Under the pieces are notes generated by a model. The model had not been told where the DNA came from, did no database searches, and saw nothing but the letters and a program-made list of their open reading frames with translations. 64,000 nucleotides of DNA from Psammoneis japonica (taxonomy: Eukaryota), in assembly GCA_008632985.1 (NCBI GenBank), contig QPGO01000004.1:496001-560000 (forward strand). Direction: 5' to 3'. This document shows positions 1,852 to 47,100 of the stretch, one piece after another (the first letter of the stretch is position 1; every line of letters starts with the position of its first letter). Both the position numbers and the translations under genes were made by a program.

Positions 1852-4800
1852 TCAAACAGAAGGCGCGCCTTCATTGAAATCGCCTGCAAGATCAACATCT
1901 TGGAGTTTCTCGCTCGGTTCAGACAAACTCGGATTTTCCTTGATTCCCCAATCTGCTGTTTCTTCATGTTCCTGTTTAGGTTGTTTCCGACTAAACATCT
2001 TGCCGAAAAAGGAAGCCTGTGTCTTGCTACCCGATTCTTCTGCTCCTTCTGCAGAGTCTTGGGGTTCGACTGGATCTTCTTCGTTCTCCTCTTCCTTAGA
2101 TGACTTACGACCACGCATCTTGGCAAGGAAGGAGTTGTTGGTACCGGAACCTTCGGTAGAGTCTTGGGATCCGATTTCTCCCAATGGCTTTCTTTCAATA
2201 TCCGATTCGTCATCATCACCACCAGCTCGAAGTCTCCTGCGTCTGCGAATAAAGATGAAAACAGACAACAGAAAAGCTCCAGCAGCAAGACTTGAAATGG
2301 TTGCAATCAATACGGTGTCGTTGCCCGATGAGCCACCGCTATCTTCACCGTTTGCACCTTGTGGGTTGAGAATCTTTGTACCTCCAACCTTAGCTGACAT
2401 TACATTGGTGGTACTGTGGAAGAGGTTTTGTGGGGGCAATGTACGAGTCGCATTCAAATATTTGGGGCTATTGAGAGACTCAATAACCATGGCGTTGAGA
2501 GAGAGCTGGTTGGGCACAAGCGATTCATCCGTTTCATCCAAAAAGAATGCAGCTGATTCAAATACGACGACAAGCTTTAATGAACTTGAGATATCCGATG
2601 AAGAGAGTGCATTCATTTGGTAAGTCACATAATCGACTGTGCGCGCTGTACCGAACACTGCAGAGAAGATGTCATCCAAATATATCTGTGTAACTCCGGC
2701 CAGCTGATGAACCTCTTCATCCAACGCATTCCTGTTTATGGTGATCTCGTATTCTACTGCAATATCGCTGAGCTCCACCTTTTCTCCTTCTGGACTTGGT
2801 GTAGGAGAAGGAGTGCCAGAACTGCCGCCGTCTGGTGTCTTTGGTGTAGTGGGAGTAGGTCCTCCACTCGCAGGAGTTCCTCCATCAGCTGGAGATCCGG
2901 CTGGTGATCCACCTGAAGGAGATCCGCCGGGCGTGGGTCCACCTGATGGGGGGGTACCGGGAGATCCAGGAGATCCAGGAGTTGTAGATCCTGGCGTAGG
3001 TCCACCTGATGGAGGCCCACCGGGAGATCCAGGGGTTGGAGATCCGCCGGGCGTGGGTCCACCTGAGGGAGGCCCACCTGAGGGAGGCCCACCAGGAGAT
3101 CCAGGAGTTGGAGATCCGTCTGTTGGTTCGCCTGACTTAGGTCCGTCAGCTGGAGATCCAGGGGTTGGCGATCCGGGCGTGGGTCCACCTGATGGAGGCC
3201 CACCGGGAGATCCAGGTGTTGGAGCTCCATCGGTTGGTCCGCCCGATGGTTGACGTCCGTCTCCACCATTAGATGGAGGTCCTCCCGGATGGCTCGGGCC
3301 AGAGCTTGGAACTGAGTTATCAATCAAGAGAACACAGAAAGCAAATTAGGGAAACTACGAGACATTTGACTTTTGATTTGATGCCCTGAATTAATCACTT
3401 ACCATCATGACTAGGAGGCATTGGACTAGGCGGCATTGGACTAGGCGGTATTGGACTAGGAGGAAACGGACTAGGAGGAAATGGACTAGGTGGTTCTGGG
3501 TAGCACATAGAAGGAGAAGACAGTTAGAGGTGAAACTCACTTTTGAAATGCCTTGATTTTCGTGTGTACATCTTACCTGGAAAACTTGTAGGCTCTGCAG
3601 TCGGAACCGGAGTCGGAATAGGATTTGTGACGAACTGATACATGTCAGTATCCTCACAAACCTCTCCAGTTGAAAGAGTTTCTGCCTGAGCAAAAACTGT
3701 CACTTTGTACGTCTCCGTTACACACAGATCGACGGTATACATCGTCATAGCAGTAGCTGCATCGTCCGGATCAATCGGGTTCTGACTTAAGCCGTCAAGA
3801 ATGCTCTCCGTTGTTCCGTCTCTTGTCTCTTCCAAGGTAGTGACCTGAAAAGTGTCAGTTCCAACATTTTCGACGACGTAGCTGTACTTGATCTTCGCGA
3901 GACATTCTTTGGATTCACCTCCAACATCGCAACCTTTGAGGACTAAGCTTCCAAGCTTGTCATTGAGGAACAGCGGGGCCGTTCCAGATGGATTGAAGAT
4001 AATCTCTTGGCTGCCAATAGTACACATCATGGAGGTAGGAAGTCCAGTAGATTCTATTTCAATAACATCTCCCGGTGACACGTCTGTCTCGCTAACGTAA
4101 TTGATACCTCCAGAATCGCAACTGATATCAACTACGCCTGATGGAGTGCTGCCTTCGCATGAAAACTCGCTTCCCTGGGATTGCATACTATCATCACAGC
4201 TACATGGCTCGTAAACAAAGGTGAGGTCCGTCACATCCTCACCGCCGGTAGAGCACTGTTCATCTGGTTCAGGGATGTCATCGCAGTCAACCGTGGTATC
4301 GTCAAAGAGGGTACAGCCAGCCGTGACCTAAATTTATCGGTATACAATCTGTTAGAGGAGCTTGCTTCATTTCAAATCTAGGAGCAAATAAGAGAGTCCA
4401 GTACTTACTTCCACAGCACATTCACCCGGTGTTGGTGATGGAGTAGGAGGAGGAGGGGATGTCGGGGTAGGCTCCGGGGTTCCGGATGGCGTTGGTGCAG
4501 GAGTTGGTGCCGGAGTCAGTGCTGGAGTTGGTGCCGGAGTGGGAGGAGGAAACGGTGCTGTCGGGGTGGGCCCAGGAGTCGGTGCCGGAGTAGGAGGAGG
4601 AGGTGATGTCGGGGTGGGTTCAGGTGTTGACGCTGGAGTCGATGCCGGAGTCGGCGCTGGAGTCGGCGCTGGAGTCGGAACAGGTGCTGCGGGGGTGGGC
4701 CCTGGCGTAGGTGACGGCGTAGGGGCTGGTGTTGGAGATGGAGTTGGCATCGGCGTTGGACTCGGAGTTGGTGATGGCGTTGGATTCGGAGTAGGAGCAG

Positions 4801-6293: not shown

Positions 6294-8709
6294 ATGATCC
6301 TTTGTACCCGCTCATTCACAACCGGTGCGTTGGTTTCGTTTGCTTTGTTCTGCCAGACGTCTGGAGTTGAGACGCGCGGATTCGACTTTAATGAGATGGA
6401 ACCAACCTCATTCAAACCAAACAGCCAAGAGCCTGTGCCTCGGCAACTTGGATGGGAGAAGAAAGAACCACACTTGCTCCATTGGCAGTTTGCGCGACAC
6501 GAGGGCGGGAAAAAGGGAAAGAAGAACCACGGAGGCGGGAAAAAGGGAGGTGGCAAGAAGGGACGTGGAAAGGGAGGACATCACTGGTACAAACACAAGG
6601 TGATGAAAACCTTCGCACCGACCCCGTGTCCAACGCCGAAAGGGCCAACTCCTGACTGTACTGTGGAAGTAAGTGCCTTACAGACCTTTCTCGCTGGTTG
6701 CTCCTGTTTCTCTTCAATGACGCTCGTGTCTCTTACGTATCAATGCTTCTTGGCATGTATAGGTCACGGCTGGCTGTACCCTCTTCGACGATACCTCGGT
6801 CGACTGTGATGACATTCCTCAACCGGATGGACAGTGCTCATCAGGTGCCGCAGATGTGACAGACCTCACCTTTGTGTACCAGCCAACTGACTGCGAAGAT
6901 AGTATGCAATCCCAAGGAAGCGAGTTCTCCTGCGGAGGCAGCACTCCATCAGGCGAAGTTGATATCAGTTGCAATTCTGCAGGTATCAACTATGTTAGCG
7001 AGACAGATGTATCACCAGGAGACGTTATTGAAATAGAATCAACTGGACTTCCTCCCTCCATGGTTTGTATCATTGGCACCCAAGCGATTATGTTCAATCC
7101 ATCTGGAACGGCACCGCTGAATCTAAATAACAAACTTGGCAGTTTAGTTCTAAAAGGCTGCGAAGCTGGGGGTGAATCCAAAGAATGTCTCGCGAAGATC
7201 CAGTACAGCTACGTTGTCGAAAATTCTGGAACTGACACTTTTCAGGTTATCACCTTAGAAGAGACAAGAGACGAGATAACGGAGAGCATTCTTGACGACC
7301 TAAGTCCAAACCCGATTGATCCAGGTGATTCAGCTACTGCTACAACGATGGATACCATCGACCTGTGTGTACCGGAAACGTACAAGGTGACAGTTTTTGT
7401 TCAGGCAGAACTTCTTTCAACTGAAGAGGTTTGCGAGGATACTGACATGTATAATTTCGTCACAAACCCGCTGCCAACACCGTCGCCGACACCTGCTCCG
7501 ACGCCGTCGCCCACTCCTGCTCCGACGCCATCGCCCACTCCTGTTCCGACGCCATCGCCCACACCCTCTCCGACTCCGTCGCCCACACCCGCCCCGACGC
7601 CATCACCAACGCCATCGCCTACACCAGCTCCAACGCCGGCACCCACCCCATCTCCAACTCCCAGTCCAACGCCCGAGCCTACTCCGGAATCACCCATCCC
7701 CCCATCACCAACGCCCCCATCACCTGGCCCTCTATCGCCCGCCCCCCCAAGCTCATCAGCTGACCTATGGTATGAAGCAGGTAAGAACTCTACGTCGATA
7801 TTCTTCGTTTTCGACATGCGTTTCCCAAACGTCCTGTTCACCTATTCGTTTTCTTTCACCTATTTGAATTTAGACAAAATGATGGATATTCAAAGTCTGG
7901 ACTTGACCCCCATATCAGTGAAGTACACGCTAGGCGAGGGTGACAGAAAACTTGCAAATGAGGGCGACATTCGCAGTGATGAAGACTACGAGTATCTTGC
8001 AGAATATACAGTTGATTTCATTGGACACCACTTGAGCAAGGAGAGACCCAATGACTTTAATTCATTAAAGCTGACCTCTTTTGGTTGGAAATCAGATGAT
8101 CCATTGGTTGTTAGCTTTGACTTGATGGCCGATTTTGTCAAAACTGACGGTTGGGATCTTCCATCAGTAGAGTACCTCGACGAAGTTGCTCAAAGTTCGC
8201 TCAAAAAGGAGAAGTACTTAACTCATCTTTTCAATGAGTTGCCTTCAACAAACAGGTTCAAGTTTGCGACAGAAGTCACCGTGGAAGAAACGACGAAAGA
8301 ACAGGTTGAGTCGTTCAACGAAGAAACGGATTCCCAACGAGAGAGCACCTCAAATCACGACGGAACTCTGGTTGCGGTGATTCTGTCATCGGCCTTTGGT
8401 GTTTTGGGCATGGTTGGTATTTTTATCTACCGAAAGAAGCGTCGTAACACGCAAGGTAACGAAACGAAGAAAGACAGTACCGACGACACTGTTGTTGAGG
8501 AACAAACTCTTGCAGGAAGCTTGTCCGTCGACAACAGTTCGGTCATGGCTTCCTACCCGAATCGGTCCTACTATGGCGAGAGGGATGATGGCTCGTTGGT
8601 GGCTACTTCGTCCTTGAAAGGACGACTGGGGCTTGATGACAATGTCGACGAAGCCGACGAGAAAGACGATGCATTTGTCATTGAATCCATTGACCTTTGT
8701 CAAGACTAA
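6294..8709 (+). CDS. Mucin-like type I membrane protein, paralogue B (~740 aa, 3 exons)
   Basis: Exons 6294-6668, 6763-7780 and 7874-8709; the 93-bp second intron is in frame and is read through by the ORF track. Shares the Cys-rich domain and the CxVE|VTAGC intron position with paralogue A. Has PTPS/PTPA repeats and [23 protein letters not shown] + RKKRR. Confidence 0.8.
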
Positions 8710-21297: not shown

Positions 21298-24200
21298 TCA
21301 CGGCAACGAATGCTGCCGGAAGAAACTCATTGTAGTTTCATTGTAATAAGGGTAATTCAACGGTACCTGATGGTCATTCTGCCCGGTACCGTAGTTGCTG
21401 TGAAGAACAAAAATGTTGGGCTCCTCGCAATCCACGTCGGTAAATGTGCCGAGTGTCCTGATAGTGTCCTTGTACGCTGAACCGGTCGCTCGCTGGCATC
21501 CGTTTATGCGAAACCACCAGTCACTTACATCACCAGTACCAGAGACACGCGAGTCGTACTGTCCTTTCATTGTTATCATCGGCACCGCCCGTTCACAGTC
21601 TTCGGGGACGATTGGCGGGTACAAGTTGTAATACCCTGGATAACCATCGAAAAAATGAGGGCTGTTGGACGCAACAGAAACGGACGCAGCAATTTTGTCC
21701 CCACGAGAACAGGAGAGAGCGCTTGTCATGTCGCCACCCCAGCTTTGTCCTGTGACAAAAACATGCTTAAGATTGATGCACAGGTCGTCCGACACATCAT
21801 CAAGGATATCGTCGAAGAAAATGAAGTCATCGTTGTCGTTCCTTTGCCCAGTCACCCAGCCTTCGACGGCATTCGAGCCCGTCCATCCCCACATTGGCCA
21901 ATCCCGACGCAGAGCATAGGGGTATACAAAAATGGCATTGTCTGCATAAGAAGTCTCTTCCAGCTCTAAATAACCTCTCATCCAGTCTCCCCTCCATCCA
22001 ATGCCATGATATCCAATCACCAGATCATAACTCTTGAACCGGTCGTAACTGGTAGGAACAGACAGATGGTAAGTCCGCGACACACCGCCCGATACAATAA
22101 CAGTGTCCCGCTGTCCTTCCGCCACAATTTTGCCGCACCCCGGTGAACTTGTACTTGGGCTTGAAGGACTTCTCGTAGGCGGCAAAGTAGGTTGAAGGTT
22201 AGGCTGTGGCAGTGGAGTGGGCGACGGCGACGGTACATTTCCCGTCGATCCGTTCAATTCGATGGAGACGTTGTCGACATACAAATCATTCCATTCATAT
22301 CCGCTACAAACGAAGCGAAGCCGAAAGTTACTTGTGAAGTACTGCGAGGGAATAGGCACAGAAAAGAGTTGCTCGGATTCACCAATCGCGCTCAGTCGAT
22401 CATAGTTTTGCCCATCTGAAGATACCTGCACTTCAGCTACTCCAGAGCTTGACAGAGAAGCTCTAGAGTCAAACGAAACAGAAGCCGAAATGGCACCTGC
22501 CAGGTTGGCTCCTCGATCCGACCACACCACCTGAAACCAACTCTTGCTCCCGAGTAAACGCAAACAGTCGCCCTCTTTACACCAGCCTGACATTGACTGA
22601 ACATATACTCCAACACTCGAATCACCAGTCCAACTGCCGGACCAGTCCAGGGATCCAATATTACCGTTGAATCCGGAGTCAAAGTTATCCGCGTAGTCAT
22701 TCGCCTGCGACAAACGAGGAGTGGGCGCAAGCGTCGGTGGATTCGTGGGGTCAGCTGTTGGCTGTGTCGCCGCAGACGAGGGTGCTGGTGTGGAGGTAGG
22801 TGGGGGTGGAGTGGGCGACGTAGTCGGTACATTTCCCGTCGAGCCGTTCAATTCGATGGAGACGTTGTCGACGTATAAATCATTCCAATCATATCCGCTG
22901 CAAACGAAGCGAAGCCGAAAGTTACTCGTGAAGTACTGCGAGGGAATAAGCAGAGAAAAGAGTTGCTCGGATTCACCAATTGTGCTCAGTTGATCATAGT
23001 TTTGCCCATCTGAAGATACCTGCACTTCAGCTACTCCAGAGCTTGACAGAGAAGCTCTAGAGTCAAACGAAACAGAAGCCGAAATGGCACTGGCCAGGTT
23101 GGCACCTCTATCCGACCACACCGCCTGAAACCAACTCTTGCTCCCGAGTAAACGCAAACAGTCGCCCTCTTTACACCAGCCTGACATTGACTGAACATAT
23201 ACTCCAACACTCGAATCACCAGTCCAACTGCCGGACCAGTGAAGGGATCCGATATTACCGTTGAATCCGGAGTCAAAGTTATCCGCGTAGTCATTCGCCT
23301 GCGACAAACGAGGAGTGGGCGCAAGCGTCGGTGGATTCGTGGGATCAGTTGTTGGCTGTGGCGTCGCAAACGAGGGTGCTGCTGTGGAGGTAGGAGTGGG
23401 TTCAACTCCGCTGCTTGTAACATCAATCCTAACGTCGTCAATGTACAAGTCATTCCAGTCATATCCTTGGACCATGAAGCGAAGCCGAAAGCCTGACGTG
23501 TAGAATTGAGATGGGATAATGAAGGTGCGGTATCCCTCGAGATTCGATCCTATATCCTCTAGATTCTCACCAATCTGCGACCAAGTTCCCGGTGCTCCAT
23601 CGCTTCCACTGACGTAAACCGAACCATGTCCATCCTCAAAGAAAGCTTGAAAATGAAATGATAGCGAAGCTTGAGTAGCTCCTTCCAAACTTGCACCACG
23701 GTCACTAAGCGCCGTCTCGTAGGAATTGTCTGAAACAATTAATCGGAGACAGTTTGCCGCCAAGCACCAACCCTGCATCGACTCAATTCGCACTCCCGGA
23801 CCTTGAGACCACGCATCTGCCCACATGTAGCTTCCGTCATTTCCTGTTTCGCCGGTACTGCCTTGACTCGAAGTGTCAAAATCATCTGCAAATGTTCCAT
23901 CAAGCATTGTTAACTTAGGCTGAATATCCTTTATTTCAACATTGTCCACAAAGAGACTTGTCCCCTCTGTAGCTCGGAAACGCACAGCAAACTCGGACGT
24001 CAAATAGGCTGATTCGATGTCAACAGATATTAGTCCGCTAGTGCCAACAGCAAGGGTAGCAACCTTGACCCATCCCAATGAACTCTTGAAGTGAACCTTG
24101 GCAGAACTTCCGGAACCAACCAGATGGTAGTCGAACGTGAGCTTGATGCTGCTGGACGAGGAGAAGCTGCTCAGGTCAGCTTTGCGCTTGGTAGTAGAGG

Positions 24201-24468: not shown

Positions 24469-24814
24469 CCTCTTCTATTGTCAGCTTGCCGTGGATACAC
24501 TCACATTTTTCTTTTTTTCTTTTTTGGTTTGGAACCTCACTGGCGTTTTCTCGGTCACATGCCCGATGGACAATGCCAGTGATAAAGATTCTTGAGATGC
24601 CCAAGACCCGATTATAACATCTACTGTTAAAATGAGACCAGCGCACCAGCCAAGCACAACAAGCCATTCTGGTTTGACTGCCATTCCAAGCATTCGAATG
24701 GAGATTGAAGGTCCATTCTCTCTCTCCATTGAGCCATTGCAACTGTGACCCATTCAACATTCTGTGCAATTGGAAACTCACTCTCCACAACTCACAACAA
24801 GAGTCTGTGGACTC

Positions 24815-27800
24815 TGACAGGATTTGAACAAGATTTTAGTTTGTCACACACAATTGTGTGTGCTCTTGGTTCCGAGTGCGTCGCGCGATGTAGTTTGCTT
24901 TCGAGCCACTCGGCTCATAAGAATAACAACAGCAGCACCGACATCACGACACCAGTCTTTTGGCTCCTTGGCGGTCTCTGCACGGAGACTCATCTGCTGT
25001 TTAGACAGCAGCAAGGAGTCATTGTTTTCTTCCACCCAGTCATCTTCATTTTCGCTTTGGGTCCCCAGCTTGCACCTGGCTGCTCACCCTGATGTGCATG
25101 TGCTTTGTGCTCAACCACACAGCATCGCCAAGCTCCACTGGCGTGCCCCCACTGAGGTGCTGTCTGGCTCCACTCCCGACATCAGCCCGCTCCTCCGCTT
25201 TCAATGGTGGGAACCCATGCACTGCCACCTGGATGATTCCGACTGGCCACCCAAATCCCGTGAATTGTGTGGTCACTTCGTTGGCATCGTTGGTCACCAA
25301 ATGACGTTCAAGATTCTTTCTGATGACACTCAGAAGATTCTCTGCCGTTCCAACGTGCACTCCACCCGTGATCCGTCTGCGCTCCAAACCTGCGTCTTGA
25401 TCCTCCTGACAAGAAATCTGCTGAACCTGTCATTAAACCCTGCCACAACTCCAAGGATTTGCCAGATTTGCCAGATGGGGAGGTGATCAGGATGTCCAAA
25501 ATGCCCGTTTTTGACCCCGAGGATGTCACAGGACGCACCTTCCTCATGAAGCCACAAGAGGATGGACAATGCCACATGGCCCGCATTGTCAAAGCCGTTG
25601 AGGACCACGACTGGAAAATCAGAGACAATCCTGAACTGGTCAAGTTCATTTGCTCCATCAACAATGACAAACATGAGGAAGTCCTGGCCTGCAATGACAT
25701 CATGCACCACATTGAGCAAGAAGACGAGGACACCACCCTCTGGAAGTTCCGACACATCGCATCGCACGAAGGACCATTGTGACCCCATGATCCCTCTTGG
25801 AAAGGCTCAAGCTGCGGACATCATGCTTGAACAGGAGAATGGGGAGATCACGTCCGAACCCCTTGCCATCATTGCCAAGGATGACCCCATCACCTGTGCC
25901 ATCTGCGCGTGTGAGCATGGCCTTCTAGAAATCGAAGGATGGAGATGTTTTTGCAAGGCGGCCCTTCGTCAGAAGCAGCCATTCCGCATGGCCAACCAAG
26001 CCAAGTTGTGCTCCTTTCGCACTGCGCCACAATGCAAGCACGGGCATGAAGTGCTGCGGGACTGCAAGCATGCCATGGCCCTTGATGAGCGCAATGGCAA
26101 CCGCAAGTGGGGAGACGCAACGGACCTCGAGATGACTCAGCTTGATGAGTGCGAGGTCTTCCACGACTGCGGACACCACAACGATTCCAGTGCTCCATCA
26201 GGACACAAGAAGATCCAGGTGCATCTCATCTGTGATGTCTGGCATGACGGATGGCACAAAGCAAGGCTTGTTGCCAATGGACACCTCACAGACGTGCCCA
26301 TCGACAGTGTCTGTTCCGGAGCAGTGTCTCTCCGTGGCCGCGAATGATGATCTTCCTGGCCGAACTCAACGAACTAGAGACCTGGGCCACTGACATTGGG
26401 AATGCCCACCTCAAAGCTGCAACCAAGGAGAAACTGCACATTGCAGCAGGCCCCAAGTTCAGCAACCTGGAAGGACACATCCTTGTCATCCACAAGGCCT
26501 TGTGCGGACTCCGCAGCTCCGGCCTCAGATGGCATGAACGCTTTGCTGATTGCTTGCATGCCGAAGGCTTCTTCCCATGCAAAGCTGAACCCAACATCTG
26601 GCTGCACAGGAATGGTGACCACTGCGAACACGTGGCAGTGCATGTGATTGACCCAGCCTTTGCTGTGAAGGACCCCCAGGCTTTTGCAGACACCCTCATG
26701 GAGAAACACAAGTTCAAGCTCAAGGGCACTGGACCATTGGAGTTCCATCTTGGCTGCAACTTCACCCGTGACCCAGATGGCACCCTGTGCCTTGCTCCCT
26801 GCAAGCACATTGAGCGCATGGTTGACAACCGCGCATGTCTCTTTGGGGAGAAGCCCCGCACTGATGTGCTTTCACCCGTTGACAAGGGTGACCACCCTGA
26901 ACTTGACACCTCCGAATTGCTCAAACTGGAGGGCATCCACCAACTCCAATCCTTGATTGGATCCCTGCAATGGGCCATGTCTCTAGGTCACATCGACATT
27001 GCTGTGACTGTCCTGTCCCTGTCTGGCTTCCATGCAGTGCCCTGCCAAGGCCACTTAGACCGCGCCAAATGCATCCACGGATTCCTCTCCAAGATGCGTC
27101 ATGGCACCCTCTGAGTGCGCACCGAGGAGCCCGACTGTTTGGACCTCCCTGAGCCTGTGTGTGACTGGGCTCAATCTGTGTGTGGGGAGGTAGAAGAGCT
27201 GCTCCCACAAGATGCACCCAAGCTGCTTGGCAAGTTCGTCACCACCACACACTGTGTTGATGCAAACTTGTTCCATTGCATGCTCACTGGACGCTCTGTC
27301 ACTGGCATCCTCCATTTCCTCAACAAGTTTCCGGCTGATTGGTTCTCTGAGAAACAAGCAACAGTTGAGACTGCTGCATGTGGATCCAAGTTTGTTGCCG
27401 CAAGGACGTGCGTTGAGCAGATCATTGATCTGTGCATCACTTTGCCTTTGCGTCACCTTGGCATTCCCATTCGTGAAACATGTCACATGTTTGGGGACAA
27501 CAAGTCAGTTGTGGACAGTGCCACCATCCTGCACTCCAAGCCGCACAAGCGACACACTGCCCTCTTGTTCCATCGTGTGCGTGAGGCGATTGCCTCCAGT
27601 TTTCTCGAGTTTCATTTTGTCGAAGGCTCCCACAACCCGCTGACATCCTCAGCAAGCATTGGGGTCACTCCCAAGTCTGGAACCTCCTTCGTCCTCCAAT
27701 GTTTTGGAACTTCGACCCTGAGGCTTTCAACCAATCCAACTTCGAATCCATTGCTGTTGACCCCTCAAGCAAACTGGGGAGTGACAGGATTTGAACAAGA

Positions 27801-28026
27801 TTTTAGTTTGTCACACACAATTGTGTGTGCTCTTAGTTCCACGCGCATCGCGCGATGCAGTTTGCTTTCGAGCCACTCGGCTCACAAGAATGATGACAGC
27901 AGCACCGACATCATGACACCAGTCTTTTGGCTCCTGTGATGGTCTCTGCACAGAGACTCATCTGCCATTTAGACAACAGTGAGGAGTTGTTGTTTTCTTC
28001 CACCCAGTCATCTTCATTTTCTGTCA
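24815..28026 (+). mobile_element. Ty1/Copia (CoDi-like) LTR retrotransposon, copy 1; gag/protease deleted; pseudogenised INT-RT-RNaseH
   Basis: 5' LTR 24815-25053 is fused directly to integrase sequence. RT motifs HKARLVANG, DIGNAHL, KALCGLRSSG; RNaseH motifs VDANL, KQATVET, GDNKSVV. PPT aaactggggag, then 3' LTR 27782-28026 (TGACAG...CTGTCA). TSD GACTC/GACTT. Confidence 0.93.
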
Positions 28027-28372
28027 GACTTGCTGTGAGTCCGACACAGCAGCTGAGAACTCTTCACACCAGCCCTCTCCAGCCAAACACACCACCCCGG
28101 CCCATTCAAGAATGTCTTCTTTGTGCTCCTCTTGTGGTGTCATCAAAAGCAGCTCTGATGGACTGCTGGCAGCTGGGCATTTTAACACACTTTTCCTCTG
28201 TGCTGAAAAACACATGAGTGTGGCCAGCCAACATGGTGTGCTTGCTTTTTGGCATCTCAGCCCCAAAGACCCAATGATGATGTCTGAAGTCATCGGTGCT
28301 GGTGCAGTGTGGGCCATGCATGTTGAGCCATTTGGCTGCGATTTAAATGGAGATTGAAGGTCCCATCTCTCT

Positions 28373-31300
28373 TGACAGGATTTGAACAAAATGTTGGTTT
28401 GTCACACATGATTGTGTGTGCTCTTAGTTCCACGCGGGTCGCGCAAGATGTAGTTTGCTTTCGAGCCACTTTGGCTCACAAGAATGATGACAGTAGCACT
28501 GATGTCATGACGCCAGTCTTTCGGCTCCTGCAATGGTCTCTGCATGGAGACTCATCTGCCAATTGGACAGCAGCAAGGAGTCATTGTTTTCTTCCACCCA
28601 GTCATCTTCATTTTCTGTCAGATCAACAGTCTTGCTCTTTGTTGTCCATTGAGCGTTCATCATCGTCATCGAGAAATTTTCGACGACGCGCACCGTTGGT
28701 GGTGGAAGCACATGTCTACCTTCTTCACTGCTGTGTGCTGGATTAAATCCACATGTTTGGATTTGTCCAATGCCTCCCATCGTTGGACACATTCATTCAA
28801 CGGATGTTTGTTTGGCCAGGAATTCCCAAATTCTCAGACATCCGAGATTCTGGATTCCTTGCAGCGGATCCTGCCAATCCATCTGCTGGCGTCCACATGC
28901 ACACAATGTAAACCCCTGACTCTGGCTCTGCTCCACGCATGCCAAGTCTGCCACCTTGCATCCACACCAGATTGCTGGTCTTCTGCAGGCCTGCAAGGTC
29001 CACGAGGACAACTGTGAGAGGAAGCAGTTCGTGATTGCAGCCTGCGTTAGGGCAAGGGTGCATTTCCCATGTTTGTTCGTCCCTCCACAGCACCAAATTT
29101 GGCCGGCCTGATTGGGTCATCCAACCGACATAAAATGACAATGGTTCGGAGGTCTTGTCCACCTCTGGTTGGTTTGTCAGCAGGGGTTTTTAACCCATCA
29201 CTCCACTCTCAAGCAACCCAAAGTGCCACCAGCTGCGGGTTTGGACGTGCCGGCACAACTCCACAGACCGGATGGGAAGCTCAGCACTCAACTGTGAATG
29301 GGACATCACAGCCTGGCAGTTTCTGACTCTTGAGACAGTTCAAGACATCAAATCAAGATTCAAGTCAAGTTTCAAGTCATTTCAAGCCCACACTCTGATT
29401 CTGGCCAGTTCCGACATCCACCCAGTTGCAACATGGTTCTCACCAGGCAACAACAAATCAATGGCCTCAAGCACATTCTAGGCACTGTTCTGAATCAAGC
29501 TGCAGACAGTCCATTGCGCTCGCCCTCAACATTGATGGAACCGATTCGCATCAGGACCTTTTCACTTTTACTCCGATGCAATTGGATGCCCTTGTGTGCA
29601 ACGATGGCACCAATCAAATGCCCTTGCCATGTGGTTACAAAGCACAGACAGCTGTGCTGATTAGCCTGCACATGGCAAAAGTGCGTGGCGGCGCGGATGT
29701 TGGCAACGACCCTCAATTGTTCACACAAGAGGAGTTCACCAACTGTCATCTTAGTCCTGAGCATGTGGCGTCCCTCTCCATGGGTGCAGCACCATCTGCT
29801 CCCACTCTTGGCTCGTTGCCACCCAAACCACGTGATCCCATGTGTGACTTTAAACGAGGCATCAAATGTGACCCACTTGCCTTCGCGTTTCTCAAGTCTG
29901 ACAAACAGTGGCACATGTGGCACACCTCCATCATCGCACAGGCCCGCTCCCAAGACGTGCACGCATTCTCGATCCGACGCACAAGCCCTCTACAGCTGAG
30001 GACATGGCCCTGTTTGATGAACAACAGAAGCACATGTTCATAGTGTTTGAACAGATCTTGCAGAATGACAAAGGCAAGGCACTTGTTCGTCAACATGTCG
30101 GCTCCTCTGATGCTCAAGCGGTGTGTCGTGACCTCTCCAAGCATGCCCTTGCTTCCACTCGCGCATCCCTGGAGTCCTCGACCCTTCTCACGCACCTCAC
30201 CACTGCTTGCCTTGGTGATGGCACCTGGAAGGGATCCACTCATGCCTTCACACTTCACTGCAGGACCAGCTTTGCAAGCATGAAGCTCTTGTCCCGGGTG
30301 CGGACCATTTCTCTGCTGGCCAGAAACGTGCCATGCTTGAGAACGCAATTCATCCCATCGAAGAACTCCATTTGGTGAAGAATCAGGCTGATCAGTTCCA
30401 TGTGCAGAATGGAAAGGGGCTCTCTTACAAAGAGTGCTGTGGACTCCTGCTTTCTGCTGCAGCACAGCACGACAGCACGTTCACCCCCAAGATGGCTGCG
30501 AACATGACCTGGTTGAAGACAACATTCACAATCGTGGTGCCCCGTCCAAGCTCATCAGCAACCATGCTCAGGTTGAGATCACTTCTTGGCATCCTTCATG
30601 CCCTCTTCATCTCCAGTTGGCAAAGCAAGCCTCACCACCAGCTTCAGAATTTTGCTGAACGCCGCTGCCAAACTGTGAAGACCATGGCCAACACTGTCAT
30701 GGATCGCTTTGGGTCCCCGGCTTGCACCTGGCTTCTTGCCCTGATGTGCATGTGCTTTGTGCTCAACCACACGGTGTCCACCAAGCTCCACTGGCATGCC
30801 CCCGCCAAGGTGCTGTCCGGCTCCACTCCCGACATCAGCCTGCTCCTCCGCTTTCAATGGTGGGAACCCGTGTGCCACCACCTGGATGATTCCGACTGGC
30901 CGTCCAAATCCCGTGAATTGTGTGGTCACTTCGTTGGCATCGCCGAGCACGTTGGTCACCAAATGACGTTCAAGATTCTTTCTGACAACACTCAGAAGAT
31001 TCTCTGCCATTGCAATGTGTGCTCCGCCCGTGATCCGTCTGCTCCAAACCTGTGTCTTGATCCTCCTGACAAGAAATCTGCTGAACCTGTCATTAAATCC
31101 CACCACGACTCCAAGGATTCACCAGATTCACCAGATGGGGAGGTGATCAGGATGCCCAAAATGCCGGTCTTTGACCCCGAGGATGTCACAGGATGCACCT
31201 TCCTCATGAAGCCACAAGAGGATGGACAACGCCACAGAGCCCGCATTGTCAAAGCCATTGAGGACACGACTGGAAAATTGGAGACAATCCTGAACTGGTC

Positions 31301-33670
31301 AAGTTCATTTGCTCTGTCAACAATGATGAATGCGAGGAAGTCCTGGCCTGCAATGACATCATGCACCACATTGAGCAAGAAGACGAGGACACCACCCTCT
31401 GGAAGTTCCGACGAATCGCATCGCACGAAGGACCATTGCGACCCCATGATCCCTCTTGGAAAGGCTCAAGCTACAACGTCATGCTTGAACAGGAGAATGG
31501 GGAGATCACATCCGAACCCCTTGCCGTCATTGCCAAGGATGACCCCATCACCTGTGCCATCTACGCGCGTGAGCACGGCCTTCTAGAAACCGAAGGATGG
31601 AGACGTTTTTGCAAGGCGGCCCTTCGTCAGAAGAAGCCATTCCACATGGCCAACCAAGCCAAGTTGTGCTCATTTTGCACTGCGCCACAATGCAAGCACG
31701 GGCACGAAGTGCCACGGGACTACAAGCATGCCATGGCCCTTGATGAGCACAACGGCAACCGCAAGTGGGGAGACGCAATGGACCTCGAGATGACTCAGCT
31801 TGATGAGTGCAAGGTCTTCCATGACTGCGGACACCACAATGATTCCAGTGCTCCATCAGGACACAAGAAGATCCGGGTGCATCTCATCTGTGATGTCAAA
31901 CATGACGGACAGCACAAAGCAAGGCTTGTTGCCAATGGACACCTCACAGACGTGCCCATCAACAGTGTCTGTTCTGGAGCAGTGTCTCTCCGTGGCCTGC
32001 AAATGATGATCTTCCTGGCCAAACTCAACGAACTAGAGACCTGGGCCACTGACATTGGGAATGCCCACCTCGAAGCTGTGACCAAGGAGAAACTGCACAT
32101 CATGGCAGGCCCCGAGTTCAGCAACCTGGAAGGACACATCCTTGTCATCCACAAGGCCTTGTACGGACTCCGCAGCTCCAGCCTCAGATGGCATGAACTC
32201 TTTGCTGATTGCTTGCATGCCAAAGGCTTCTTCCCATGCAAAGCCGAACCCGACATCTGGCTGCACAGGAACGGTGACCACTGTGAATGCGTGGCAGTGC
32301 ATGTGGATGACCCAGCCTTTGCCATGGGACCCCCAGGCTTTTGCAGACACCCTCATGGAGAAACACAAGTTCAAGCTCAAGGGCACTGGACCATTGGAGT
32401 TCCATCTTGGCTGTGGCTTCACCCGTGACCCAGATGGCACCCTGTGCCTTGCTCCCCGCAAGCACATTGAGCACATGGTTGACAACTGTGCATGTCTCTT
32501 TGGGGAGAAGCCCCGCACTGATGTGCTTTCACCCGTTGACAAGGGTGACCACCCTGAACTTGACACCTCCGAATTGCTCAAACCGGAGGGCATCCACCAA
32601 CTCCAATCCTTGATTGGATCCCTGCAATGGGCCGTGTCTCCAGGTCACATCAACATTGCTGTGACTGCCTGTCCCTGTCTGGCTTCCGTGCAGCACCCCG
32701 CCAAGGCCACTGGACCAGCCAAACGCATCGCGGATTCCTCTCCAAGATGTGTCATGGCACCCTCCGAGTGCGCACCGAGGAGCCCAACCATTTGGACCTC
32801 CCTGAGCCTGTGTGTGACTGGGCTCAATCTGTGTGTGGGGAGGTAGAAGAGCTGCTCCGCAAGATGCACCCAAGCCGCTTGGCAAGTTCATCACCACCTC
32901 ACACTGCGTTGATGCGAACTTGTTGCATTGCATGCTCACTGGACGCTCTGTCACTGGCATCCTCCATTTCCTCAACAAGCTTCCGGCTGATTGGTTCTCT
33001 AAGAAACAAGCAACAGTTGAGACTGCTGCACATGGATCCGAGTTTGTTGCCGCAAGGACATGCATTGAGCAGATCATTTGTCTGCGCATCACTTTGCATT
33101 GCCTTGACGTTCCCATTCGTGAAACATGTGCATGTTTGGGGATGACAAGTCAGTTGTGGACAGTGCCACCATCCCGCACTCCAAGTTGCACAAGCAACAC
33201 ACCGCCCTCTCGTTCCATCATGTGCGTGAGGCGATTGCCTCTGGTTTCCTTGAGTTTCATTTCATCGAAGGCTCCCGCAACCCGGCTGACATCCTCAGCA
33301 AGCATTGGGGTCACTCCCAAGTCTGGAACCTCCTTTGTCCTCTAATGTTTTGGAACTTCAATCCCAAGGCTTTCAACCAATCTGACTTTGAATCTGTCAC
33401 TGTTGACCCCTCAAGCAAACTGGGGAGTGACAGGATTTGAACAAGATTTTAGTTTGTCACACACAATTGTGTGTGCTCTTAGTTCTGCGTGCGTCACGCG
33501 ATGTAGTTTGCTTTGAGCCACTCGGCTCACAAGAACAATGACAGCAGCACCAATGTCACGACACCAGTCTTTCGGCTCCTGTGATGGTCTCTGCATGGAA
33601 CTCATCTGCCATTTAGACAGCAGCAAGGAGTTGTTGTTTTCTTCCACCCAGTCATCTTCATTTTCTGTCA
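28373..33670 (+). mobile_element. Ty1/Copia (CoDi-like) LTR retrotransposon, copy 2; gag remnant, deletion near 30500, pseudogenised INT-RT-RNaseH
   Basis: LTRs 28373-28620 and 33428-33670; perfect TSD TCTCT; gag-like DFKRGIKCD...KQW...AQARSQDV and ILQNDKGKALVRQH; integrase PHHQLQNFAERR; PPT before the 3' LTR. Confidence 0.93.
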
Positions 33671-36066
33671 TCTCTCCATTGAGCTCTTGCAACTGTGACC
33701 CATTCAACATTCTGCAAAATTTAAACTCACTCCAAAACTCACAACAAACAATCTGTGAACTCGCTGCTGCAGCAGCACAAAACTCTTTGCCAGCCCTCTC
33801 CAGCCAAACACCACCCCAGCCCATTTGAAGGTGCTTTGTTTTGTTGCTCTTCTTGTGGTGTCAAAGCTCACTCAATCTCTGTTGATCTGTTGCAACTGTG
33901 ACCCATTCAAGAACATTCTGACCATTTACAAACTCATTCCAAAACTTGCTTGCAATCTGTCATTTGTTCATCGCAACAATCAAACTCTTCATCAGCCCAA
34001 ACACTCTCCTTTTTGAGGCAGCTTGCAGCATGTGCTGTGCTGACAACTGGCAAATGCCAGCTGTGTCTTGTGTCAAGAGGCTCCTGCAGCAAGAGATGCA
34101 TGACCCAAAAGCACATGTTGCACAGCTTTGTGCAAACACTTGCACTTCTTATTTTGCTGAGTGGGTGCATCACTTGACACATGATCTCCTGTCAACTGTG
34201 AGCAACTGCTTCACACAATGCAATCAGGATGGCACACTTGACTGGTGGTTCCTGCAGTTGTGCTTGGTGAGCAAAGGTTCTGCACAAAATGCTGTGCATT
34301 GTGCAGCATTCACTGAGAACAAGATGATCTTGGGGTGAAGCTCTCTGTTCTTGGATGAGGACATTCATGCGTGGGTGGCTGTGGAGCAAGTGTGTGCACC
34401 TTGCACAAGGTGCATGCCTTGCACATGTCTAGAAACACTTCACAGTGACGTGAGCCAACTCAGAAATGGAGGTTCTCAAAATTGGCAACAACAGCAAACT
34501 TTGCTGCTGTCCAGTGCCCACCCCATGCCTCAATTTGGCTCACAAGGCATGCTGATGTTGCCTCCCTTCAAGTGCACACAGAGAAACATTCTGTGAGAAA
34601 CTCAGCTGCCAAAACTGCACCTCTTGAACTGTCAACAACTGCTGCCAGCATGCTGAAGAAAAGGACAAAGCAACTGCTCATGCTTGTGCCATTGGAGGTC
34701 AGTGCTCTTGTGATGTTCAACAACAAACAATGCATGCAATCCACAGCAGGTCATTGTGCCCAGTCATCAGCAAAGCATTTGGTGCTTTGTGGCCCTTGTC
34801 ATGGGAACAGCATGCAGCCAGCATGCACTGTGCTGAAAACTGGCAGACACCAGCAATGTCTTGTGTCAAAAGGTTCTCTTGCAGCCAGAGACACATGACC
34901 CAAAAATTTGCATTTTGCAGGCCCACACATGCCCACGCTCATTTTGCTGAGTGAGTGCATTGATGTTGTCACATGTGTCAACAGCAAGTGATCTGCACCA
35001 CAAAGATTGTGCCCTCAACTGCCCTCCTCTTGAGTCCCACCAAATGAGCAAAGGCTCTGCCTGTGATGCAGTGCTGCGGCATTGTGCAACACTTGCTGAG
35101 AGCCAAGATGAACTTGGGGGGTGAAGTTCTTTGTTCACAGATGAAGACATTTGTGTGCACACACAACACGAAGGCGCGCACATCATGCGGCCAAACATTT
35201 CACAGCAATGTCATGAGCCAACTTAAAAACAGTTCTCACAATTGGAAACAATGGCAAGCTTTGCTGCTGCTCACAAAATCCATCTCCCAATTTGGTGCTC
35301 TGGGCAGGCTCTTTTGTTTGTGCACTCTTGTCACATCATGAAAAGCAGCTCTGAGAGACTGCTGGCAGCCTGGCACTTTCACACTTCCTCTGCACCAAGA
35401 AAGACATGAGGGTGGCCAGTCAACATGATGGTCTTTGCTTTGACACCAGCCAAATCAGCACACACAGGGCCCTGCTCCTGGCTTGGCCAAAAAAGCCTTG
35501 AGCCGCAAGTCATGAGCATTCTCTTGTTGAGAGCTGAACCAGGAAAATGGAATTGAGACTCTGGTGCACACTCAAGCTGCTGAAAATGGGGAAAACAGTG
35601 ATCATGATGAATGAATGACAAAAATTCCTGACAACCCGATGGGCTTCAATGAAAGTTGATGCCCCCCACCCCCACCCAGCAAAGGGGCACAGTGTTGATG
35701 GTTCCTGAGCAGCACCCAACAAAGAGAGGACAACAGCATGTTCTCCTGTCTGAAGTCGCTGACTTGTTGACATGTTGTGGTCAACTTGAAACATGCCGCG
35801 TTCGAGAATGTGAGGAAAGCAAATCTGGCACTACACTCTCTCCAGTCGTGCTTGTGTGGAGCACCGGAATGCACTGCACCTACGAACGACCACGACTGGA
35901 AAGCCGACCATTGTGAAATTGTGTTGACGACACGCGTCAATCATTGCAGCAAAAACACACAATTGCGGGGCGCCTTTCACAAATTTAAGGGCGTGCTTAC
36001 CCTAGAAACGCACACCAGCTCCTCACATAAACTCCAAAACTACAGTGAACAAATTATCACAAAAGG

Positions 36067-44396: not shown

Positions 44397-44579
44397 TCTT
44401 CATTCAGAACTTTCCTTCTGACTCCTGACTGAAACAAATACGCAACATGAAACAAGATAGCAGATTGGAGATACCAGCAGCAGACGACGACGCGACGTAC
44501 GACGACGACTCTGGATGAGCGAGTGCCGGCCGCGGCCGCGCCGCCCGCCGTTGGCTGGCGTCGTCAGTCTTGCTTTCGT

Positions 44580-47100
44580 TCGATGCACCCATTGGTCGCA
44601 GGTCAGGCCAGAATTGCAGAGGTTCCAACTGAAACATGGCCATGACAGCTGCTGCTGGTAAGCTGCTGAGCTGCTTCTGGAAAACTGTGCAACAAGAACC
44701 TTGTGAATGTGCCAGCAGCAATCAATCACATGCTTGAGATGAGGGCATGACCGACAAGGGCAATGACGACAAAAATGATTCCCTCCGCCAGCGCAGCGCT
44801 TTTGACATTGTTGTTGCAGCTGAGTGAGGAATTTGCTGATGTGAAAAACAGCCAAAATTCAAAATGTTTTCATTGAGGCCAACCCCAACCGAGCAAAAAA
44901 AGAAAATGAAAAAGACGAAATGGCTCGAAAAGCTCGAACTCACCCGGATTTTCACCCTCGACTCTTTTTCAACTCGGCCGAAACGAAAAAAGAGTCCGAC
45001 TCTTTTTTCACAAACCCGGAAGTGTGAAAAAAGAGAAAAGAGTGATGTGGGCCGCATGCTGTCACACAATTCGTGCATGCGTCTTGGTTTGCGTAGGACA
45101 CCAGCAAAGCAATCCAAAGTTCGCCTCACGCACCGCATCATCAAGTCGCCATGGCGGTCTGTGATTGTTTTTGATGACTTCTTTCAATGTCATGACTGTG
45201 TGAGTAACACCAGTTGATCATTTGAAGCAGACATGACATGTCTCTTGAAGGAGTTGGTGAAGCATGCAGCAGCTCTTCTGCAACAGACCTTTTGTCTTCA
45301 AATGATGTGGGTCTTGATGTGCATCATAGAAAGTCGACACATGAGGTCCCTAAAGTGGATCTTTGTGACACAGAAATGGCCACACTGACTGATTTAGATG
45401 CGACTTGTTCAATGGTGCTATTCTCACGCTGTTTGATTCTAGATTGGGGGCTCGAAATGGCCCGAGAAGTGCACAAAAACTTTCCACTTGACAACCACTT
45501 AAGTCATCCCACAAGCCTGTTGCATTTGCACTGAACAAAAAAAGAAATGGCACCCACCGACTGGGAAAAAATGGAGGTTCTCATGGTGTCACTCTCATTG
45601 TCATAAGGCAGAACTTCGATGCCGTTGTGGTCGTCATCTTCATTGTCGTGTGAGGCCTCTCGCTTTGCTTGTCATCAGCATGCCCAAGACACCCGGATGT
45701 TTGGCTTTTTAATTTTCACGCCGGCTGGGTCACCAAAACGACAAAATGAAAAAAGAGTTGAGGTTGGCTCTTTTTCATTTTCTTTTTTCGCTCGGCTGGG
45801 GTTGGCCTGAGGATCCATTTCTCTGAAATCCACAGTGACTTGACACATGACCAGCGGCGAGATTTCCAATTGAGTGCAAAGCTCTTCATGAGCGGGCTCT
45901 CAAATTCAGTGTTCTCACCTGTTGGTTTCTTGTGTCACAGCCAGAAAATGGCAAATCAGGCAGTGTTTTCATCCCCCAAATCTCATGTTTTGGGTGTCCA
46001 AAATCTTTCTCCTGCACAGCTCACAGTGGTGCAGTGCACACCTTGCTGTGGAGGGTGCTTTTTTTCACACTGCTGGGCACCACAATGCAAACCCAAACCC
46101 GCTGCTTGCACAAGGCATTCCACACAAATCACACCAGAAAATGTGCAGATCTGGCAACAACCAACATTGTCGGTGCATCAACACCACAGCCTCACACTGT
46201 CCACAGACGTTTTCAAACTTGTTGTGGAATCGTGGGCACAGCATTGGAGCAGAAAGAGCCAGCAGTCATTTCATGCTCAATTTTGTCCAAGAGTGAACAA
46301 CTGCAAATTGTCGCTTTTTCAGTGATGTGTGTCATTGATTGTTGTCATGTGCTCAGATCTGCTGCACCTTGCAAGCAAAATGACATGGAAGCAAATGTGT
46401 CTTTCCGTTGCAGCTTGCAACAGCATTGTCTTTCTTGTTGTGGTGTAGCCATTGTTTCTGTCATTTGCATGAAATGTCTTTTTGCTTTTTGCAAAAAATG
46501 TGCTCACTCTTGGACTGGGCTCTTTCTCTTGATCATGCCGGTTTTCAGCCGATGTGATGCCTTGGCTCTGGCCCTGTCAACTGGTGTCCGCACGAGATGT
46601 GGTTCGACCACAGCTCTTAGACAATTTGTGGCAGACGCAGTCTGGGGTCTTGTTTTTTGTTGGTGATCACAGCTTTGTGAGTTTTTTTTTTAAATTTCTA
46701 GATGGTTGCATTGAATTTTGCTGCTTGGGCGGATTTGAGTGCACTGGAGATGCCCTGTTGGTTGCATCACATTTTGAAGGCAGGGTGCTGCAAGAATGTG
46801 AGTGTTTTTCTTTCACTCAGCTCACAGCCTCACCCAAATGGTCACACTTCATGCAGGATTCAGCAAAAAGAGTGCAGTTTTGGCTTGCTGTTTGTTAAAA
46901 GATGCGCGTCAATCAAGCTGTGCTGAGCACTTCTTGCACCTGTCAACATGAGCTCGCCTGGTGCCACCACACATGGCTGGAAACAGTGTCGCAGTGACAA
47001 CAGAATGGGAGAAATGCCTTCTTGGACAGCAATGGCATCATTGGCACCATTGTGCATCACGACAGCATCGTCAACACACTCCTGATTTGGTGTTGAGCTC
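44580..47100. repeat. Second TpA-depleted repeat island; contains the Harbinger-like element and unclassified decayed sequence
   Basis: Near absence of TA and excess TG/CA; translations are Cys/His-rich and Tyr-poor in all frames. Confidence 0.7.
44877..45807. mobile_element. Non-autonomous TIR element (PIF/Harbinger-like), 3-bp TSD TGA
   Basis: TGA|GGCCAACCCCAACCGAGCAAAAAAAGAAAATGAAAAAGA at the left end, and its near-perfect reverse complement ending ...GGGGTTGGCC|TGA at the right end. Confidence 0.8.

Follow-up and report, generated by a model that had tools for sequence, protein, structure and literature searches.

Repeat-induced point mutation (RIP) of ascomycetes consists of dinucleotide-specific transitions, mainly CpA to TpA, and is triggered by homology. 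The process closest to the one described here is found in Bigelowiella natans, where the integrated DNA of NCLDV (nucleocytoplasmic large DNA viruses) as well as of virophages undergoes hypermutation of TpA to TpG and CpA at about 1000 times the background; according to the main text of the preprint, the change affects both strands and only foreign or silent domains, is active in only some lines, has also depleted TpA at transposon-type genes in the long term, and is proposed by Mettrop et al. to result from an ADAT-type deamination of adenine (bioRxiv 10.64898/2026.01.13.699255). Here, we describe the loss of TpA (TA hereafter) from two decayed copies of a Ty1/copia retrotransposon in a stretch of 64 kb of the diatom Psammoneis japonica (the window: 64,000 nucleotides of contig QPGO01000004.1, positions 496,001 to 560,000), which is eukaryotic DNA dense in genes. 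Named homologs of another gene of this genome come from Skeletonema, Thalassiosira, Seminavis, Nitzschia, and Fistulifera, in keeping with a diatom and probably a pennate one. The loss is graded by the flanking bases, with TA between a pyrimidine and a purine (YTAR) being slowed and not spared. The observation is real and well supported, and TA hypermutation as such has been reported once before.

As far as the main text of the preprint goes, the Bigelowiella process is alike in changing TA to both TG and CA, on both strands, within limited domains, and unevenly among lines there or copies here. The two cases differ in that the host is here a diatom, in that the targets are transposons of the long terminal repeat (LTR) and DNA types along with the low-copy DNA next to them, with an erasure near saturation, and in that the rate was measured de novo there and is inferred from copies here. 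Flanking or trinucleotide context and diatoms are not mentioned in that main text, although Fig. 2B and Table S2 of the preprint, the latter on roughly 230 de novo TpA mutations, may hold flanking data (bioRxiv 10.64898/2026.01.13.699255); the extended context (TAY about 2.5 times TAR, A at -2, and a weak off-target effect outside TA) is measured here. No report of a diatom TpA mutator was found in the literature searched, mostly without subscription papers. RIP is similar in that repeats are destroyed by dinucleotide-specific transitions, which also spill over into the flanks. However, the polarity is opposite, as RIP makes TpA from CpA and here TpA is lost, and duplication does not appear to be the trigger, since host-gene duplicates keep TA (two control pairs) and a stretch of near-unique DNA has been hit on a single haplotype. 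Young inserts that are 98% identical are mostly untouched here, and strand-coordinated runs are absent.

The substrate shows every feature used to assign it to Ty1/copia, namely LTR ends TG...CA, a 5-bp target duplication, and an RVT_2 reverse transcriptase; it may belong to the CoDi elements of diatoms. The 40 top-ranked of 412 candidates in the genome gave 41 matches; 38 loci were taken at up to 10 kb, 36 of them were used (two fragmented loci were omitted), and the data set comprises 41 natural segments, window copies included. The copies are nearly star-like in a tree of 28 segments (terminal branches 0.049, internal 0.008), in which the two window copies group together with a support of 1.0 and do not count as independent samples. 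Sites were assigned to an ancestral state by counts over copies, giving 218 TA-origin sites (34 YTAR, 84 YTAY, 31 RTAR, and 69 RTAY) and 433 CpG-origin sites; under this rule, which in part demands both products, sites gone wholly to one product go unrecognized, so that the hottest ones are hidden, and TAY sites are often saturated. A rule needing the agreement of all five TA-rich copies was rejected, as it left 26 sites only, biased to resistant ones. Eight segments retain 52 to 80% of their TA sites and most others 3 to 22%, with a few up to 33%. Hitting is uneven among haplotypes and copies, which is compatible with the activity in only some lines of Bigelowiella but is not a rate per generation.

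At TA-origin sites, the copies read TG 2451 times, CA 2128 times, and TA 1378 times, with every other state at 24 or fewer. The change of A:T to G:C is almost confined to TA (4579 TG plus CA), and A>G outside TA amounts to 0.5 to 2.3%. Equal loss across NTAN contexts, the outcome that a first-pass annotation of this DNA had named as fatal to its proposal that TAY is hit and YTAR spared, is not seen: the negative log likelihood of per-strand rate models falls from 5811 (one rate) to 5431 (TAY and TAR) and 5279 (16 tetramers). Rates span 12-fold over the 16 tetramers, the fastest being ATAT (2.1) and ATAC (1.8) and the slowest CTAA (0.31) and TTAA (0.17). Grouped by the +1 base, they are 1.51 for T, 1.37 for C, 0.64 for G, and 0.48 for A, which bears out the annotation in that lost TAs are mainly TAC and TAT, with TAT at least equal to TAC. 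The TAY/TAR ratio of per-strand A>G change is 2.55 (2.2 to 3.1) over all copies (site bootstrap, 40 replicates) and 1.8 (1.4 to 2.3) over lightly hit, unsaturated copies only (100 replicates).

Mean TA retention in heavily hit copies is 0.36 at YTAR (34 sites), 0.15 at YTAY (84 sites), 0.12 at RTAR (31 sites), and 0.05 at RTAY (69 sites), and YTAR stands apart from the rest at the level of sites (P = 2e-7). "Spared" was therefore an overstatement, with a mean retention of only 0.25 even at CTAG; the rule is right but graded, because most YTAR sites are still lost. The product depends on context as well, with TG making up 0.69 of the products at YTAY but 0.28 of those at RTAR (P = 2e-11). A 5' C had been linked to TG and a 5' A or G to CA. 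The former holds (CTAY, 688 TG and 331 CA), while the latter is weaker (ATAR, 99 TG and 204 CA; GTAR, 79 and 235; GTAY, 447 and 535) and fails at ATAY, with 240 TG and 183 CA. Beyond the adjoining bases, the preference extends to -3 (purine), -2 (A), and +2 (C or G), with a cross-validated R2 of 0.19 for the +1 base alone and 0.32 for -3 to +2. TA within T- or A-tracts is lost more slowly. Of the +1/+2 classes, TACG is lost fastest where copies are heavily hit (P = 0.006), most of its sites there being saturated; among lightly hit copies it has no clear lead.

The same 3' preference is found, much weaker, at adenines not preceded by T. Those followed by a pyrimidine have changed to G at 345 of 19362 positions in heavily hit copies versus 46 of 6182 in lightly hit ones (1.78% versus 0.74%; P = 6e-10), whereas those followed by a purine (VAR) show 135 of 19183 versus 53 of 6119 (0.70% versus 0.87%; P = 0.2). 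The largest excess is that of AAY, with 2.15% versus 0.67%. As there is an excess at AAY, CAY, and GAY and none at VAR, the 3' preference extends to the off-target tail. Arithmetic from the site rates and the off-target counts makes TAY about 100 times faster than AAY.

Within the window, TA is at 0.06 to 0.15 of its expected frequency across 26 to 36 kb and at about 0.5 to 0.6 in genes, and over the copia elements CpG is reduced only by about half. The two copia copies (24815 to 28026 and 28373 to 33670), both decayed and with four LTRs in total, are arranged as follows.

24700 to 35980, no strand: TA-erased domain with both copia copies and the low-copy DNA beyond; TA observed/expected about 0.03 to 0.2 per 500 bp; edges approximate
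24815 to 25053, plus strand: LTR of the first copia copy, its 3' end removed by an internal deletion
25052 to 27779, plus strand: decayed pol of the first copy, with the integrase end, reverse transcriptase, and RNase H (by resemblance)
27782 to 28026, plus strand: 3' LTR of the first copy
28373 to 28620, plus strand: 5' LTR of the second copy, with a 5-bp target-site duplication before it
28621 to 33425, plus strand: decayed gag-pol of the second copy, with internal deletions and an RVT_2 (PF07727) match in frame at 31262 to 32425
33428 to 33670, plus strand: 3' LTR of the second copy, with the matching 5-bp duplication after it
33671 to 35980, no strand: degenerate low-copy repeat DNA, TA and CG both erased

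The pol of the first copy (25052 to 27779) retains TA at 7 of 89 TA-origin sites, and the three aligned segments of the window together retain it at 19/44 YTAR, 1/74 RTAY, 8/106 YTAY, and 5/42 RTAR sites. Between 25060 and 33420 there are 39 TAs, of which 23 are YTAR, 8 YTAY, 7 RTAR, and 1 RTAY, the reverse of the TA-origin mix and in agreement with the claim that survivors are mostly YTAR; the five survivor motifs quoted as shared by the copies are all present, and three are common to the two pol copies, while two lie in LTRs. The flanks of the copies are alike at 80 to 85% (24721 to 24814 versus 33671 to 33762, and 28047 to 28142 versus 33770 to 33863). This resemblance, taken with the grouping of the two copies in the tree, suggests that they arose by local duplication and not by independent insertion. 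TA loss at 33700 to 35980 is not an assembly artifact, as this part is matched by short-read contigs of the same sample, within a 5.4-kb contig, with 13 differences; over 33671 to 35980, same-sample contigs differ from the window at 34150 (TA/CA) and in a TG/CA doublet at 34259 to 34260.

The same order of contexts recurs outside the copia copies of this genome, both in a transposon of another class and in metagenomic DNA. The window contains another TA-poor region with an element of the second class.

44500 to 47100, no strand: second TA-erased domain, surrounding the inverted-repeat element; edges approximate
44876 to 45808, no strand: DNA element with terminal inverted repeats; 38/51 TA changed to TG or CA and 36/39 CpG kept

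The check that had been proposed, survival by NTAN context at reconstructed origin sites, gave the same order in this DNA transposon as in copia. Eleven of the 14 collected segments were aligned, three divergent ones being omitted, and the seven heavily hit copies keep TA at 28/75 YTAR, 19/94 RTAR, 9/59 YTAY, and 4/77 RTAY sites, with 31 TG and 16 CA as products at YTAY and 27 TG and 40 CA at RTAR. One copy of a young related family has 11 private changes, of which 6 are TA to TG or CA, with 5 in TAY, and none is at CpG. In an alignment-free count, YTAR makes up 786 of 1675 surviving TAs in 759 TA-poor counting windows, many of which are copies of one element, versus 1090 of 6241 in 304 normal ones. 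Finally, 4 of 52 copia relatives from metagenomes (L170, L189, L190, and L197) have a TA observed/expected of 0.31 or less, and strong TA loss is not seen in the other 48. These four are 68 to 71% like the copies of this genome, with two of them 94% alike, and their survivors are YTAR 32 to RTAY 16, versus 1354 to 2866 in the other 48 (P = 1e-6), which suggests that the same process occurs in other organisms.

TA is lost from chromosomal DNA once an element has inserted, because the LTRs at its two ends are unlike at TA sites. We compared 17 LTR pairs, 16 of which are flanked by a 5-bp duplication with no more than one mismatch, and 430 of 4184 positions differ. TA sites account for 226 of the 430 mismatches (186 in 93 TG/CA doublets and 40 as TA versus TG or CA), and CpG for 91; of the rest, 56 are transitions of other kinds and 57 are transversions, a count raised by two flanking bases within the bounds used. 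Both strands are hit equally, with a sense/antisense factor of 0.97 (0.85 to 1.12) and no sense bias. There are no strand-concordant runs under 1 kb (z <= 0.7), a small excess of concordance at 1 to 3 kb (0.506 versus 0.502, z = 3.5), and a weak patchiness of loss inside copies (z up to 3.1). C>T at NCA is at 0.07 to 0.21% in heavily hit copies; TA is lost and not gained. TA-free DNA extends about 0.2 to 1.3 kb beyond the LTR ends, with sharp edges and often with intact CpG, although part of this flanking DNA could consist of older repeats; an empty-site allele sought for one flank returned only paralogs outside the TA-poor part.

TA erasure is separate from CpG decay. It resembles the decay of 5-methylcytosine (5mC) at CpG in acting on both strands, by single independent hits, with TG and CA as products, and in the same copies, but its substrate is another and the two can be separated: CpG retention across copies is 0.26 to 0.79 and correlates with TA retention (rho 0.43 to 0.47), yet copies with a CpG retention near 0.68 span TA retentions from 0.11 to 0.80. 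Two contigs that appear to be haplotypes (C317 and C41) differ over about 750 bp adjoining an erased domain at 12/13 TA, 3/47 CpG, and two non-T-A-T adenines, all changed on C317, so the edge of the domain is specific to one haplotype. This stretch has only one local duplicate, at 75%, plus short weak matches elsewhere, and the young TA-rich insert at its edge is unmutated. Young inserts with normal TA (L142, L143, L153, and L216:763-1150) lie within or beside fully TA-erased DNA; as they keep TA there, erasure would lag insertion or be episodic. By sequence, the loss seems confined to foreign or repeat domains, with host genes exempt: duplicates of host genes keep TA in the two control pairs available (602 bp at 95% with 19 shared TAs and 731 bp at 86% with 25). 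These controls, both in the window and with normal TA, are an internal tandem repeat (95%) in the gene of a secreted-looking protein (22206 to 23401) and an inverted gene duplicate (86%) at 3600 to 4330 and 6760 to 7490.

A chromatin-directed DNA adenine deaminase is our best explanation for the TA loss, at a probability of roughly 45%. The selectivity of about 100-fold for the 5' base, the graded 3' preference, and the matching off-target tail are what an enzyme binding site gives. In repeat-bearing domains, such an enzyme would change A:T to G:C very fast at TA on both strands after insertion, fastest at TAT and TAC and slowest at TAA and TAG. Adenine would be deaminated to inosine and then copied as G, in single hits on DNA that is duplex or opened for a short time; recruitment could be by a silent-chromatin mark or by small RNAs, and the role may be genome defense. 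If each site is lost via whichever strand is the better substrate, YTAY should go to TG and RTAR to CA, with RTAY lost first and YTAR last. A more ambitious version, in which a native chromatin-targeted deaminase acts on double-stranded genomic DNA at the motif R-A-T-A-Y-S (the second A being the target) as a RIP-like defense of opposite polarity shared with distant algae, and hence as an adenine base editor guided by heterochromatin, is tentative and on the doubtful side.

The suggestion in the first-pass annotation that a trinucleotide preference would indicate an enzyme stands insofar as the preference goes beyond the dinucleotide and fits one sequence-selective process, for which a TadA-type enzyme would be a putative agent. 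Its analogy with the UAC(G) recognized by TadA holds for the 5' T with a 3' pyrimidine, and the A to inosine to G chemistry of TadA and ADAT2 would give this change; it is less apt in that the rate at TAT equals or exceeds that at TAC. The boost at TACG is equivocal. According to the available text on TadA8.20, this enzyme favors a 5' U on RNA by 5 to 10 times, versus about 100 times here, and UAU by a further 1.5 to 2 times (bioRxiv 10.1101/2025.04.11.648485).

Several points weigh against a deaminase. A>G in TAY and T>C in RTA are one and the same change, so that either base could be the damaged one, and the model of positions -3 to +2 accounts for just 32% of the variance among sites in cross-validation. 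Known DNA deaminases usually leave strand-coordinated clusters, and none is seen here. Profile searches of the genome with PF00383 and PF14437 returned ordinary-looking members only, none of them expanded, and no enzyme for the process; the frames scanned in these members contain no chromatin domain. Hairpins and folding energy have no effect on the site rate (hairpin rho = 0.00), whereas amphioxus BjADAT2, a natural DNA-editing ADAT2, prefers GAA and hairpin loops in the available text of its description (PMC10354150). In the fixed reporter given for TadA8.20 in the same preprint text, UAG was edited well, at 17.5% versus 11.6% for UAC (bioRxiv 10.1101/2025.04.11.648485).

The deaminase-family members found are a dCMP deaminase, RibD, a TadA-like protein, ADAT2, and two of nucleoside/guanine type. 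The TadA-like candidate has an RNA-type Asp at the position aligned to D108 of Escherichia coli, and ADAT2 has Asn at the equivalent site, which is normal for eukaryotic ADAT2. The genome also codes for two proteins with an editase domain (PF02137), one of them ADAT1-like. The second (L248:1114-2827, contig C79) is a putative candidate with homologs across centric and pennate diatoms, and no double-stranded-RNA-binding domain was found in the three exons scanned. Elsewhere, L094:313-1785 (minus strand) combines in one frame a deaminase domain with a DIOX_N/2OG-Fe(II) oxygenase, probably for nucleobase salvage.

Damage to the other base is an unlikely alternative to the deaminase. Here, the T of R-T-A would be oxidized or alkylated in silent chromatin, for example to 5-formyluracil or, by an off-target methyltransferase, to O4-methyl-T, and would then pair with G. 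Both lesions miscode, the outcome would be the same T>C or A>G change in the same unclustered, both-strand, domain-limited pattern, and C5-methyltransferase genes are many, with 27 PF00145 matches in the genome. On the other hand, chemical damage is unlikely to give a TA-over-AA selectivity of roughly 100-fold, and there is no Tet_JBP match at E <= 0.1, which counts only weakly, as the assembly may be incomplete.

We find it quite unlikely that an eta- or iota-like Y-family polymerase puts G opposite T in repair patches begun at methylated or mismatched sites of heterochromatin, even though five Y-family genes are encoded, one of them eta-like (E = 2e-50 to Pol eta structures), and AAY is the off-target context with the largest excess. 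Pol eta favors A>G at WA (A or T before A), most of all at TA, with AA within a few-fold of TA. Measured against this, AA falls far too low here, being hit about 100 times less than TA, and the excess at AAY is about 1.5 percentage points versus near-saturation at TAY. Nor are there strand-coordinated patches or clusters, the site rate is unrelated to the distance to CpG (rho = -0.11, P = 0.11), heavily hit copies show no increase in transversions, and TA loss outruns CpG loss.

Still less probable, in our view, is an adenine mark such as N6-methyladenine (6mA) at silenced TA that decays or deaminates to inosine, as 5mC does to T, the context then being that of the methyltransferase. Independent single hits on both strands would parallel the CpG decay in the same copies, and haplotype-specific edges resemble those of an epigenetic domain. 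However, 6mA pairs normally with T and is not known to be a spontaneous A>G hotspot, and the rate is up to about 40-fold above CpG decay (the 12/13 versus 3/47 changes cited above). Last, a change at the retrotransposition stage (ADAR-type RNA editing or reverse-transcriptase error), selection, GC-biased conversion, or turnover between CpG and TpA is very improbable and largely refuted: two editase-domain genes are indeed encoded, and CpG decay also gives TG and CA with TA and CpG retention correlating (rho = 0.43), but TA sites are unlike between the LTRs of a single insertion, the DNA transposon and non-element flanks are affected too, sense and antisense are hit alike (factor about 1), A>G outside TA and C>T outside CpG remain near 1 to 2%, and CpG-origin sites are almost never TA and TA-origin sites almost never CG.

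What is added here to the one earlier report is a quantified fingerprint, the off-target tail, the recurrence of the context order in a DNA transposon and in DNA from outside this genome, and the haplotype-specific domain edge. The context profile can serve as a fingerprint for screening candidate deaminases, methyltransferases, and polymerases, and it predicts the Bigelowiella mutation list if the two cases share a single process. With the diatom data, TA hypermutation extends to a further supergroup, to transposons of either class, and to low-copy DNA nearby, and its domain edges are seen to vary between haplotypes. TA erasure strips Tyr codons from dead elements and distorts LTR dating and homology searches. 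If a deaminase does cause the loss, it would be a natural DNA adenine editor.

Some TA-erased DNA has further contents of its own. L109, L110, L111, and L118 (contigs C301, C297, and C28) contain a multicopy C5-methyltransferase-like gene in such DNA, with CpG largely kept on C297 and C301 and lost too on C28. In the window, a search of the genome for close copies of 34000 to 35900 found none, and this part has no Rfam match. It includes a degenerate direct repeat (34026 to 35441, about 68%) at single-copy depth, in which TA and CG are nearly gone, and part of this repeat is similar to 28047 to 28248, between the two copia copies.

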